Positions 13,963 to 18,679 of a stretch of DNA of 36,924 nt are shown here, piece after piece. The position numbers and the translations under genes are program-made. Where the stretch lies: NCBI GenBank assembly GCA_038326215.1, contig JBBQJU010000003.1:1-36924 (forward strand). The letters are read 5' to 3'. The first letter of the stretch is position 1. Each line of letters begins with the position of its first letter. The stretch comes from Gemmatimonadales bacterium. GTDB taxonomy: Bacteria > Gemmatimonadota > Gemmatimonadetes > Gemmatimonadales > GWC2-71-9. The notes beneath the pieces are model-generated. The model was given only the letters and a program-made list of their open reading frames with translations, was not told the origin of the DNA and made no database searches.

Positions 13963-15665
13963 TAGAACCGCCAGGTCACCGCCGCATAGGTCTGCACTGA
14001 CGCGGAAGCCGCACCTGACTCGCGGTAGGTCGACAGCATCACATAAAAGGAGCGGCCAACGGCGACGTCCAAGTCACCCCCGGCCCAGCTGAGGCGTGTC
14101 GCGGGGAGGCCCGACGAGGGCATGAGGCTGGTCCGGACGCCGGCATTGAGTGACAGGCGGACGGCCTGGCCCGGGGCAACTTCGACCGCGACCGAGGAGA
14201 GTCGCCCTTCGGTGATCGCGCCGGTGTACTGCGTGGTGCGGGCGCGGAAGCCGAGGCCAAGCGCGGTGAGCTGGGTGGCGGAGGCGGAGGCGGTGATCGC
14301 CTGCGACTTCCCTTCCGAGCCGCCACCGCTGGTGCGGATGTCGCTGGTCAGCCGGAAGTGGCGCGACGGGCGCAGCGAGACTTCGCCCCACTGACCCTGG
14401 CGAAGCGCGTCATCGAACGCGATCTCGGGATTCACGAAATCGCGATAGAGCCGGACGCTGCGACGGGAGTCGAGACCACCGGAGACGGAGAGGGCACGGC
14501 TCATCGAGAGCTGCGCCGTCAGCACCGTCGAGGTCAGGGTGGCGAACGACCCCTCGACCTGGCGCTTCCAGCCACGGTTGACATCGATCTCCTCGGCCGC
14601 ATAGATCGACACGACCCGGGTGTTGAGCGTGCCGCGCAGGTAGGCGAATTCCCGATCAATTTCGCCGCGATTGTACGAGCCGATGGCGCCGACCGTCGCA
14701 CTCCATGGCGCGGCACTCCCCTGGGCGCTGTGACGCTGTAACCAGAGACCGGCCTCGGTGGTCGCGGCCGAGGGGGCGAAGGAACCGCCATCGGGCATGG
14801 TGCCGACCAGGCCACCACCACTCCATTTGCTGCCATTCACATCAAGCGCTGCACCGTCGAAGATGCCGATCGGCGACAGGACCGTCGCGAACTGGCGGCC
14901 AACCGCCAGTCGCGTCCCGGTTGGCGAACTCTGCCGGATGACGGCGGCCTGATAGACGCGTGTCGCCCCAGCCGGTGCCGACGTGGCGGACGACGATCCG
15001 CCGGTCACGTTGGTGCGCTGCATGCGCACATCCACCGCGAGCCCCATCGACGAGCCACCGACCTGCGCACCGTCCAGTCGCAGGTCGACGGAGGGCTGCC
15101 GCAGCGTGCTGCCGCCGGGCTGGTTGATGGTGAGGTAGCGGAGACCGACACGTCCACGTACCGGAGACCGACGGGCCCCGGCACGCGTGACGGGTCGGCT
15201 CCCCGCGGCGGTGAGCGCCGTCGGGAGCTGTTGGACGATGACGGGCACGAACGAGACCGAATCGCCCACCGTGATCGCGCCAGTGCTGCGGGTGACCGCG
15301 CACGCCGTCCGGCTCGAGGAGACGAAACTCGCCGAGAGCTCCCCGATCGTCTGACCGGCACGCACCACCGTGAAGAGGGTTCCTTCTTTGACACCCTGCT
15401 TGGTGCCAACCTCGAGATAGATGGTGGCACCGCTGATGTACGTCACCGCCGCCCAACTGCGGGCCACCCCAGCCGGCGGGGCGGTCGCGGCCTTCGCGGG
15501 GACGGCCGGCGGCGTGGTCTTCGGTGTGGTCTTCGCCGTAGTCTTCGGGGCAGTCATCGGGGTCGGCTTGGGCGCAGCGATCTGCGCAGTGAGGCACGCC
15601 GAGGGCAGGCCGAGACTCAGCACCACCATCGTCACCATCCTCGTCCGGGTGCATACGCGGTTCAT
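13962..15665 (-). CDS. Putative outer-membrane beta-barrel (porin of a porin-cytochrome conduit) with N-terminal Pro/Thr/Lys linker and small FlgT-C-like beta domain
   Basis: ATG 15665 overlaps the cytochrome stop (ATGA). Signal peptide ending LTA|Q, PKTT-rich linker, IYLEVGTKQGVKEG domain, then about 400 aa of alternating amphipathic strands ending TYAAVTWRF (aromatic C-terminal beta-signal). Confidence 0.75.
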   Translation of the reverse strand: MNRVCTRTRMVTMVVLSLGLPSACLTAQIAAPKPTPMTAPKTTAKTTPKTTPPAVPAKAATAPPAGVARSWAAVTYISGATIYLEVGTKQGVKEGTLFTVVRAGQTIGELSASFVSSSRTACAVTRSTGAITVGDSVSFVPVIVQQLPTALTAAGSRPVTRAGARRSPVRGRVGLRYLTINQPGGSTLRQPSVDLRLDGAQVGGSSMGLAVDVRMQRTNVTGGSSSATSAPAGATRVYQAAVIRQSSPTGTRLAVGRQFATVLSPIGIFDGAALDVNGSKWSGGGLVGTMPDGGSFAPSAATTEAGLWLQRHSAQGSAAPWSATVGAIGSYNRGEIDREFAYLRGTLNTRVVSIYAAEEIDVNRGWKRQVEGSFATLTSTVLTAQLSMSRALSVSGGLDSRRSVRLYRDFVNPEIAFDDALRQGQWGEVSLRPSRHFRLTSDIRTSGGGSEGKSQAITASASATQLTALGLGFRARTTQYTGAITEGRLSSVAVEVAPGQAVRLSLNAGVRTSLMPSSGLPATRLSWAGGDLDVAVGRSFYVMLSTYRESGAASASVQTYAAVTWRF

Positions 15666-18600: not shown

Positions 18601-18679
18601 ACTGCGCCCCAGCGCGACCGGCAAGCAATGCCAGCAGCACGGCGGCGGCCGTGAGCCCACGCAGCATCGTCTGCCTCAT
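15662..18679 (-). CDS. Giant secreted multiheme c-type cytochrome (39 CxxCH + 1 CX4CH; about 13 triheme modules)
   Basis: Start ATG 18679 overlaps the upstream TGA, with GGAGG RBS. Sec signal ending AGA|Q, no lipobox. Heme motifs and 41 non-motif His counted by hand. Repeated unit F[ND]H..FPLTGGH..CxxCH..CxxCH..PxH..CxxCH. Confidence 0.95.
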   Translation of the reverse strand: MRQTMLRGLTAAAVLLALLAGRAGAQSGANPHGPAIGACATCHRPEGWKPVRISAAFRHAERTFPLDGAHATATCTACHTTLEFSKTKTTCASCHQDVHRAELGRDCMRCHTTRSFTDQARLARLHEENRFPLRGAHVATACEACHTPTSAGKPQFANRPSTCISCHKADYDKAAAPKHSAAGFPTDCLTCHSENAWRGAPFDHNTTAFPLTGGHQATQCASCHADGVYRGKPTTCISCHRPQFDQTKMPAHSAAAFSTDCTTCHTTTVWRGATFDHNTTTFPLTGGHQATQCASCHTDGVFKGKATSCVSCHRPNFDQTKTPPHGAAGFSTDCTTCHTTSRWLGTPFNHTTTRFPLTGGHQPLTCASCHADGVYKGKAMTCVSCHRQNFDRTTVPPHAAAGYSTDCVSCHNSTAWLGAGFNHNTTRFPLTGGHQAVTCATCHADGVYRGRSMTCVSCHRQNFDQARTPPHASAGFSTECTTCHTTTRWQGGTFNHSTTQFPLTGGHLTATCASCHADGVYRGKPTTCISCHRPNYDATRTPAHAAAGYSTDCTTCHSTTRWQGATFNHSTTRFPLTGGHLTATCASCHADGVYRGKPTACLSCHQADFTRTTTPPHAAAGFATDCTTCHTTTRWEGAIFNHGTTRFPLTGGHQAASCASCHADNVYRGKSMTCVSCHRTDYDGTRTPAHAAAGYSTDCTTCHTTTRWQGATFNHSTTRFPLTGGHLTATCASCHADGVYRGKPTTCVSCHRTNYDATRTPAHAAAGYSTDCTTCHTTTRWLGATFNHSTTQFPLTGAHQAVSCASCHADGVYRGKPTTCISCHQTDFSRTTTPPHAAAGFSTTCTTCHTTTRWQGATFNHGTTAFPLTGAHVTTTCTSCHRNNVYRGLPATCISCHQQDYTSATNPSHSGSAFPTTCATCHTTTRWTGATFDHDGPYFPIYSGAHRGRWASCATCHTAPANYTVYTCMSSGCHAQTTTNSHHQGQSGYRYVATACYSCHPRGRS
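15900..18090 (-). repeat. Ten in-frame 219-bp (73-aa) tandem coding repeats
   Basis: The FPLT-encoding anchor recurs at 16074, 16293, 16512, 16731, 16950, 17169, 17388, 17607, 17826 and 18045, an exact 219-bp period. Array boundaries are approximate. Confidence 0.95.

Follow-up and report, generated by a model that had tools for sequence, protein, structure and literature searches.

Organization of the gene cluster

The window analysed here, a stretch of 36,924 nucleotides of contig JBBQJU010000003.1 from a Gemmatimonadales bacterium (assembly GCA_038326215.1), contains five minus-strand genes with overlapping or abutting ends. They encode a membrane protein, a protein with flavin adenine dinucleotide (FAD) and iron–sulfur (Fe-S) domains, a 23-heme cytochrome, a 40-heme cytochrome and a predicted outer-membrane barrel (Table 1). 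The 40-heme cytochrome, and the part that it may play with its four neighbours in carrying electrons through the cell envelope, is the subject of this work. Stop and start codons overlap as ATGA both between the 23-heme and 40-heme genes and between the 40-heme and barrel genes, so that the two genes named as possible holders of the chain in an earlier reading of this DNA, made from the sequence only, are translationally coupled to it.

The frame of the 40-heme gene opens with the ATG at 18679-18677 and closes with the TGA at 15664-15662. A longer frame, starting with GTG and reaching to 18784, would overlap the upstream gene. The ATG at 18679 is the better start because it overlaps the stop codon of that gene as ATGA.

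Table 1. Genes and protein features of the five-gene cluster (positions in the window; aa, amino acids)
Feature	Position	Strand	Basis
40-heme c-type cytochrome gene, 1005 aa	15662..18679	minus	open reading frame bounds, motif counts; Pfam Cytochrome_C7, 150.5 bits, 12 stretches
Signal peptide, aa 1-25, ends AGA|QS	18605..18679	minus	translation read by eye, no program prediction
N-terminal module, aa 26-197	18089..18604	minus	matches to hidden Markov model of the unit; near-invariant columns in alignment of 33 homologues
Ten canonical 73-aa (219-bp) triheme units, aa 198-927	15899..18088	minus	exact register, Tandem Repeats Finder, unit profile
Divergent C-terminal triheme unit, aa 928-1005, holds CX4CH, ends in conserved CYSCHPRG	15665..15898	minus	alignment and unit profile
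670-aa cytochrome, 23 CxxCH, signal peptide	18676..20688	minus	stop overlaps ATG of 40-heme gene
475-aa FAD/2x[4Fe-4S] protein	20689..22116	minus	Pfam/NCBIfam domains
340-aa inner-membrane protein, candidate di-heme b carrier	22126..23148	minus	motifs
567-aa outer-membrane barrel protein, ends ...TWRF	13962..15665	minus	ATG overlaps 40-heme stop; AlphaFold2, Foldseek

Triheme units of the long cytochrome

The product of the gene contains 39 CxxCH motifs and one CX4CH motif (CMSSGCH, aa 968). In c-type cytochromes each CxxCH binds a heme, and does so in the periplasm. There are 80 Cys residues, exactly two for each motif, 81 His residues, of which 41 lie beyond the 40 motif His, and eight Met residues. 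Thr (179), Ala (124), Gly (81) and Ser (65) together account for 449 of the 1005 residues. The mature protein of about 980 residues has one heme for about 24.5 aa (25 aa over the full 1005 aa). This recount agrees with the numbers of motifs, spare His and mature residues given in the sequence-only reading.

Ten units follow one another in a 73-aa register from aa 198 with zero indels, and the first CxxCH of each lies at aa 220+73k (k=0..9). All ten have the same order of elements, F[ND]H, G[GA]H, CxxCH, CxxCH, P.H and CxxCH, and thus six His each. Tandem Repeats Finder detects 9.1 copies of a 219-bp period at 74% matches (16069-18056), together with an overlapping row of 2.0 copies, and so agrees with the register in supporting the ten exact 219-bp repeats, each with three CxxCH and three extra His, that had been described before. 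The N-terminal module consists of a leading heme (CATCH, aa 39) and two degenerate triheme units (aa 55-113 and 126-197). A profile derived from the ten canonical units matches both of these and, in addition, the C-terminal unit at aa 929-1001, and it tiles the mature protein into 13 triheme units and one leading heme, so that the number of hemes is 3x13+1 = 40.

Two longer homologues bear on the single CX4CH. P0031 has 14 units and 43 CxxCH, and G009, an orthologue from the same genus, has 14 units with 42 CxxCH and one CX4CH. Orthologues without CX4CH thus reach their heme total by CxxCH alone, and the CX4CH therefore replaces an ordinary heme site.

Across 33 homologues the spare His show little or no variation, and none of the Met residues is conserved in the units. 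The 1:1 ratio of spare His to hemes noted in the sequence-only reading holds. This ratio, together with the lack of a conserved Met, indicates from the sequence that the hemes are probably low-spin, bis-histidine (bis-His) ligated and concerned only with passing electrons.

Authenticity of the gene and the array

Shuffling the protein 2000 times gave a mean of 0.50 CxxCH and a maximum of four, compared with the 39 observed, and the other five frames of the same DNA contain none. The units are pairwise 59-82% identical in DNA (mean 71%) and no string longer than 28 bases occurs twice in the gene. An assembler is therefore very unlikely to have collapsed or inflated the array, which upholds the earlier judgement on this point. 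Differences between units fall mostly at the third codon position (1493) rather than the first (695) or second (627). Over 932 codons that are colinear with the G009 orthologue, 581 are identical, 290 differ synonymously and 61 non-synonymously. The gene is real and under purifying selection.

The explanation that the array or its copy number is an artefact of assembly, or that the gene is a decaying pseudogene, could draw on the state of the assembly (320 contigs, 72.83% completeness) and on the public contigs that match the gene, which are 64-564 bases long with 0-2 differing letters, none of them spanning the array. One sediment-metagenome study contains the gene (shares of 0.50, 0.34 and 0.18 of the sampled words), and the few 'joints' found in contigs have sides of 20-25 bases, as repeats would produce. 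We consider this explanation extremely improbable in view of the divergence between units, the open frame of 1005 codons, the colinearity with G009 and the excess of synonymous changes. Additionally, an independent cultured genome, that of Emticicia, encodes a homologue with 13 units and 40 hemes.

Variation in the number of units

Of 24 other genomes of the genus that were searched, ten have the gene, and several of the absences are in genomes that are at least 90% complete. In the rest of the order it is found in two of 16 genomes. This patchy distribution fits an accessory, transferable trait.

The proposal that repeat number sets the length of the chain had called for a comparison of orthologues, and repeat number does differ between them. 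Complete orthologues within the genus have 6 units (19 hemes), 12 units (37 hemes), 13 units (40 hemes; the window and one other) or 14 units (43 hemes; two genomes), and a difference of one unit separates two copies that are 92-93% identical. The window protein is colinear with that of G009 unit by unit at 82-100% identity, and the extra unit of G009 lies beside aa 490-562 of the window protein. In more distant orthologues the inner units lose their one-to-one correspondence and the end units keep it. These unit-by-unit comparisons show that length is evolvable in single-unit steps while the ends stay constant.

In two genomes of the same order and another family, G028 and G040 (loci L011 and L012), it is the C-terminal module, not the canonical unit, that is repeated in tandem. 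There are at least five matches to aa 931-1004 of the query and four CX4CH in each of these frames.

Distribution of the family and conservation of the module

In a word-indexed search, 7119 of 8000 scored candidates match the 40-heme protein. The named matches come from Gemmatimonadota, Eisenbacteria, Bryobacteraceae, Calditrichota, Bacteroidota, Ignavibacteria and Planctomycetota bins and are annotated as hypothetical or as cytochrome c3 family protein. Among the 120 matches listed, 87 have both end modules, and 82 of these 87 obey a rule of 3n+1 hemes. The 87 complete homologues have 34-70 hemes at 23.9-28.9 aa per heme; 19 of them have 70, a size that lies near the sequence-length limit of the search. 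Within this very large and unnamed family the window gene is ordinary and of middle size. It adds a clean example from the Gemmatimonadota, with a simple building rule (3n+1 hemes, conserved ends, variable middle), and shows that unit number changes between close relatives.

The 340-aa membrane protein is equally widespread. It has relatives in 1969 representative clusters at E<=0.001, its nearest clusters in the Atlas search are from Gemmatimonadota, Acidobacteriota and Myxococcota, and patterns made from ten distant members are found in at least 590 species genomes. The following statistics on gene order rest on 80 kept loci found via this protein, which come from KSB1, Calditrichota, Bacteroidota/Ignavibacteria, Zixibacteria, Krumholzibacteria, Gemmatimonadota, Acidobacteriota, Marinimicrobia, Latescibacterota, Eisenbacteria and Planctomycetota bins.

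The complete set of five genes occurs in 40 of the 80 loci overall, and in 25 of the 27 that have full 10-kb flanks; in the other two the flanks are filled by genes for cytochromes with 68 and 85 hemes. The barrel gene is always adjacent and coupled. The gene for the FAD/2x[4Fe-4S] protein is present in 64 of the 80 loci (L013-L092) and is found in three positions: ahead of the membrane-protein gene, behind it or behind the porin gene. Such variable placement argues for a flavoprotein that is part of the module by function and not by accident. Among uncut frames, 62 of 69 give 17, 20 or 23 hemes for the mid-sized cytochrome and 50 of 70 give 3n+1 hemes for the large one; among the relatives the heme number ranges from 10 to 85. 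The N-terminal module of the 40-heme protein is kept across phyla.

In many loci a further gene, for a cytochrome of about 272 aa with 8-10 hemes, lies between those for the long cytochrome and the porin (for example L042:14433-15263, L035:14413-15240 and L039:9486-10319); the window cluster has no such gene. Judged by heme count rather than by alignment, the 10-heme copy fits the end modules without the middle units.

A search of 72,556 plasmids gave a single match, pEMTOL02 of Emticicia oligotrophica DSM 17448 (L094, NC_018749.1, locus 10851-22649). Its row of genes encodes CcsA (1028 aa), a membrane protein with both motifs described below, an NAD(P)-binding protein, a 23-heme cytochrome, a 1001-aa cytochrome and a barrel. 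The 1001-aa cytochrome has 40 CxxCH, 81 His and 13 units, and RefSeq names the cytochromes 'cytochrome c3 family protein'. The location of the whole module on a plasmid of a cultured member of the Bacteroidota suggests mobility, and this strain offers a cultured, plasmid-bearing experimental system. A literature search for Emticicia together with multiheme cytochromes found no paper.

The partner proteins

The barrel protein has no Pfam or NCBIfam match. AlphaFold2, with an alignment of 52 homologues, predicts a barrel of about 22 strands (aa 170-566) with a predicted local distance difference test score (pLDDT) of 80.5, preceded by a signal helix, a disordered Pro/Thr-rich linker and a small beta domain (aa 70-139). 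Foldseek finds 282 matches to this model in the PDB at E<=0.001, with outer-membrane barrels the best. We considered that it might be a lipoprotein and dropped the idea, the Cys at the end of the signal peptide not being conserved and A27-Q28 being nearly invariant. The linker between the signal peptide and the beta domain is Pro/Thr/Lys-rich and is encoded by a 12-bp tandem repeat (3-4 copies) at 15510-15563.

In the 475-aa protein, an N-terminal membrane helix is accompanied by a zinc ribbon, a ferredoxin domain with 2x[4Fe-4S] and a Pyr_redox_3 domain that binds FAD/NAD(P). The 340-aa membrane protein has no Pfam or NCBIfam family, and no ferric reductase domain was found in Pfam at E<=0.001. 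It carries WX3HX13H at aa 137 and 310 and SGVIG (SGxxG) at aa 177. Across 32 aligned relatives, the most distant at about 25% identity, no substitution affects the four His, the second-motif Trp or either Gly of SGxxG. Four segments passed a hydropathy scan, and the helix with the first motif fell below the threshold used. In the flavoprotein the N-terminal helix is followed by basic residues, and in the membrane protein the long loop is rich in Arg; both therefore are expected to face the cytoplasm.

Comparison with PCC3 clusters

He et al. 2017 (Front Microbiol 8:1584) describe the porin-cytochrome clusters of type PCC3 as a porin, an 'extracellular' cytochrome, a 'periplasmic' cytochrome and a membrane protein of about 300 aa. 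The extracellular cytochromes have a median of 34 hemes (extremes 63 and 85) and the periplasmic ones a median of 21; the cytochromes have 22-39 aa per heme, are rich in Thr, Ser, Ala and Gly, contain internal repeats and were proposed to be molecular wires. The membrane protein is described as a five-helix protein in which helix 4 carries SGXXG and helices 3 and 5 carry WX3HX13H. For Gallionellaceae, the preprint of Hoover et al. 2023 reports PCC3 cytochromes with 10-35 hemes and partners with 21, 24 or 27, and long, mostly linear AlphaFold2 models. The reading of such cytochromes as wires is thus already in print for PCC3, with up to 85 hemes and linear models included (He et al. 2017; Hoover et al. 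2023), and the wire proposed in the sequence-only reading restates that hypothesis.

The window cluster resembles this description at each component. A predicted outer-membrane barrel gene is coupled to the 40-heme gene, the long cytochrome has 25 aa per heme, is rich in the same four residues and contains ten exact 73-aa units, the partner with a signal peptide has 23 hemes compared with the published median of 21, and the 340-aa membrane protein has SGxxG and two WX3HX13H. On this basis we favour, with a probability of about 0.7, the reading that the window gene encodes a Sec-exported, non-catalytic 40-heme cytochrome that forms the long, length-variable subunit of a five-gene envelope electron conduit of PCC3-type architecture. 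In the roughly 980 mature residues, 13 tandem triheme units and a leading heme site would together bind 40 hemes, which are probably all bis-His ligated. Electrons would pass from the inner membrane to the 23-heme periplasmic protein, then to the barrel and the 40-heme chain. On the analogy of MtrCAB and the published PCC3 model, the 23-heme protein may bridge the periplasm, and the chain may pass through the outer membrane by way of the barrel. Hopping from heme to heme would then let the cell reach further, by a distance that the number of units determines. The analysis shows the motif counts, the anatomy of the repeats, the coupling of the genes, a predicted barrel fold, a conserved module and a variable number of units; heme occupancy, bis-His ligation, the rod shape, the extracellular position and the direction of electron flow are what we infer here.

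Several results weigh against this reading. The match to PCC3 is one of architecture, since the cluster is likened to PCC3 by its published description and not by sequence. Partners in the window family have 17, 20 or 23 hemes, whereas those of Gallionellaceae have 21, 24 or 27. PCC3 as described has four genes and no FAD/Fe-S protein, whereas the window module has that extra conserved gene, and neither FAD nor ferredoxin is mentioned in the main text of He et al. 2017. PCC3 porins have up to 42 membrane strands (He et al. 2017), compared with about 22 here. PCC3 has been described mostly in Proteobacteria (Sideroxydans, Leptothrix and others), whereas the window cluster is found in Gemmatimonadota and, among its relatives, in Calditrichota, Bacteroidota/Ignavibacteria, Zixibacteria, Acidobacteriota, Eisenbacteria and other groups; no Proteobacteria are among the 80 named loci, and the representative, Atlas, genome-contig and plasmid searches gave no proteobacterial relatives of the membrane protein. 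The membrane-protein motifs do not separate PCC3 from PCC4, because the non-homologous membrane proteins of PCC4 have the same motifs (He et al. 2017).

As to the rod, AlphaFold2 applied to the whole 40-heme protein without hemes, with 33 homologues, gave an unusable model (pLDDT 53.8, predicted TM-score 0.22), which had no Foldseek matches in the PDB. As to location, the protein has a plain Sec signal with no Cys near the cleavage site, and thus no lipobox, as had been noted before, and no sorting signal. Only five frames in the genome have three or more CxxCH, so the organism is not a classic cytochrome-rich metal reducer. Finally, no RNA dataset is listed among the public read data that contain the gene. 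Counting in favour of the reading, maturation genes of the genome comprise two Cytochrom_C_asm matches and one secretin.

Comparison with other multiheme cytochromes

The 40-heme protein matches Pfam PF14522 (Cytochrome_C7) over 12 stretches, with its 150.5 bits well above the cut-off of 24.8. The sequence-only reading had likened it to GSU1996, the c7-type dodecaheme 'nanowire' of Geobacter, which consists of tandem triheme modules of about 70-75 aa with one His-Met heme per domain. The link is loose. The window protein also has tandem triheme modules in a dense heme chain and matches the broad Cytochrome_C7 family, but NCBIfam TIGR04257 (nanowire_3heme) gives no match to the 40-heme protein at E<=0.001 (its 23-heme neighbour scores 33.9 bits, with a cut-off of 40), and the solved dodecaheme structure is not matched in a phmmer search of all PDB chains at E<=0.01, which returned only the marginal, unrelated cytochromes 5ze8 (E 2.3e-4) and 5yq7 (E 9.8e-4). 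The window protein also differs from GSU1996 in having 13 units instead of four, a position beside a porin, no conserved Met and the order H, H, CxxCH, CxxCH, H, CxxCH. At about 1 nm per heme, a spacing taken from GSU1996 and from the drawings described in Hoover et al., the 40 hemes would extend over about 40 nm.

The system is like MtrCAB of Shewanella in that a cytochrome held by a barrel would pass electrons across the outer membrane, and like MtrA/DmsE in that its smallest relatives have 10 hemes in about 272 aa and in a partial match to the DmsE model. It differs in that there is no lipoprotein partner like MtrC, in its 40 hemes and in a barrel that is unrelated at the sequence level.

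A catalytic role, in which the protein would reduce or oxidise a soluble substrate as HmcA-linked or octaheme multiheme enzymes do, could be argued from partial matches to the hexadecaheme HmcA (NF045713, 138.3 bits) and to the decaheme MtrA/DmsE family (TIGR03508, 70.1 bits). Both scores are far below their cut-offs (400 and 192.2, respectively). The spare His equal the hemes in number in every unit and are conserved across the 33 homologues to the degree described above, which leaves no obvious open site, and the range of heme numbers among relatives is not expected of an enzyme with an active site. We therefore regard catalysis as very unlikely.

Giant cytochromes from metagenome bins have been reported as undescribed. 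They include a Lentimicrobium cluster with 61- and 20-heme proteins and a porin (Nat Commun 2026), Paludibaculum proteins with up to 112 motifs and Saprospiraceae giant cytochromes (mSystems 2024), and Ignavibacteria proteins with 40 and 33 motifs (Arbour et al. 2020). They occur in the same phyla as the homologues found here, and a 20-heme partner and a count of 61 (3n+1) fit the window family. They too were read as proteins for transferring or storing electrons. By heme counts, on which the comparison was made, they may share this family. The clusters EET1-4 of a peat preprint, with 8-13 hemes, are a different thing. The passages found in the Caldithrix genome paper do not discuss the cluster, and in PMC11475568 'inner membrane' was the only one of the terms sought that occurred.

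Location of the 40-heme protein

Our searches of the literature found no giant porin-linked multiheme cytochrome that has been purified or localised. The 40-heme protein might stay in the periplasm as an electron store (capacitor) or relay, with only the 23-heme protein, or neither, engaging the barrel. The plain Sec signal without lipobox or other sorting signal and the small number of other cytochromes in the genome are consistent with this. Emticicia is an aerobe and is not known for metal respiration, which counts in the same direction. 'Capacitor-like' roles have also been suggested for related giant cytochromes (the activated-sludge paper, mSystems 2024; Arbour et al. 2020).

We think a purely periplasmic location unlikely for three reasons. 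The barrel gene is always adjacent and translationally coupled; the 40-heme chain, if extended, would be longer than the width of the periplasm; and a complex prediction points, if weakly, to contact with the barrel. In this prediction the barrel was combined with the two end modules of the cytochrome and reached an interaction prediction score from aligned errors (ipSAE) of 0.42 (runs 0.43, 0.42 and 0.39), compared with 0.00 for the best of three controls. In one of these three controls only the N-terminal module was swapped for an unrelated protein, and its score of 0.00 is a weak result. Contacts are shared between the runs to at least 66%, and the partner pLDDT is at least 77. In the calibration of ipSAE, 58 of 80 solved complexes reached the mark, as did two of 110 mismatched pairs; at scores of 0.60 or below, only seven of the 80 solved complexes and both passing mismatches did so. 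The tool itself states that a pass at this level is more often wrong than right unless the contact was likely beforehand, and the user-supplied alignments and the three-chain job differ from the setting of the calibration. The model thus weakly suggests that the end modules of the 40-heme protein contact the barrel, in keeping with the envelope conduit that we favour.

A possible route of electrons

The conserved FAD/Fe-S partner is the most novel lead from the window, absent as it is from PCC3 as described, and it suggests an electron source for the conduit. The membrane protein has two His pairs with a 13-residue spacing on two helices, as for stacked b hemes, and so resembles the ferric-reductase-domain proteins (NOX, FRE, MsrQ), a comparison that He et al. 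2017 drew for the PCC3 membrane protein. We extend it to a flavin/NAD(P)-binding partner on the cytoplasmic side, with the difference that the flavoprotein here is a separate Pyr_redox_3 protein with two [4Fe-4S] clusters and not an FNR-like domain.

A more far-reaching proposal, which we regard as doubtful, is that the five-gene module is a quinone-independent conduit to or from cytoplasmic NAD(P)H/NAD(P)+, with a rod through the barrel, a reach tuned by units and transfer between phyla. Electrons would go from NAD(P)H to FAD, the [4Fe-4S] clusters, two b hemes and then 63 c hemes, as in a split NOX/FRE-like system that bypasses the quinones. The rod of uniform repeats would thread the 22-strand barrel and be retained by the conserved N-terminal module, and cells might tune its reach by gain or loss of 73-aa units. 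The module may move between phyla, as suggested by the plasmid copy with its own ccsA in Emticicia. If true, this would be a widespread redox-balancing outlet in bacteria that are not regarded as electroactive (Gemmatimonadota, Bacteroidota and Acidobacteriota). Irrespective of the route, giant multiheme cytochromes encoded beside porins are candidates for long-range electron exchange with minerals, humic matter, electrodes or partner cells, and they occur in abundant, poorly understood phyla of soil, sediment and wastewater.

Other features of the window and genome

A scan of positions 12000-24400 for promoters and terminators gave no more sites than in shuffled sequence. On the same strand as the cluster, after a 90-bp gap following the barrel gene, lies a gene for an M28 peptidase (12327-13871, minus) with an N-terminus like a signal peptide.

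Elsewhere in the genome, contig C166 (L093) encodes at 1332-2879 (plus) an unrelated 515-aa cytochrome with 16 CxxCH and the Pfam MtrC/MtrF domain II/IV. It is preceded by a gene for a 439-aa protein that belongs to no family and followed by genes for SelR and a small barrel protein, and this group of genes may be another small conduit.

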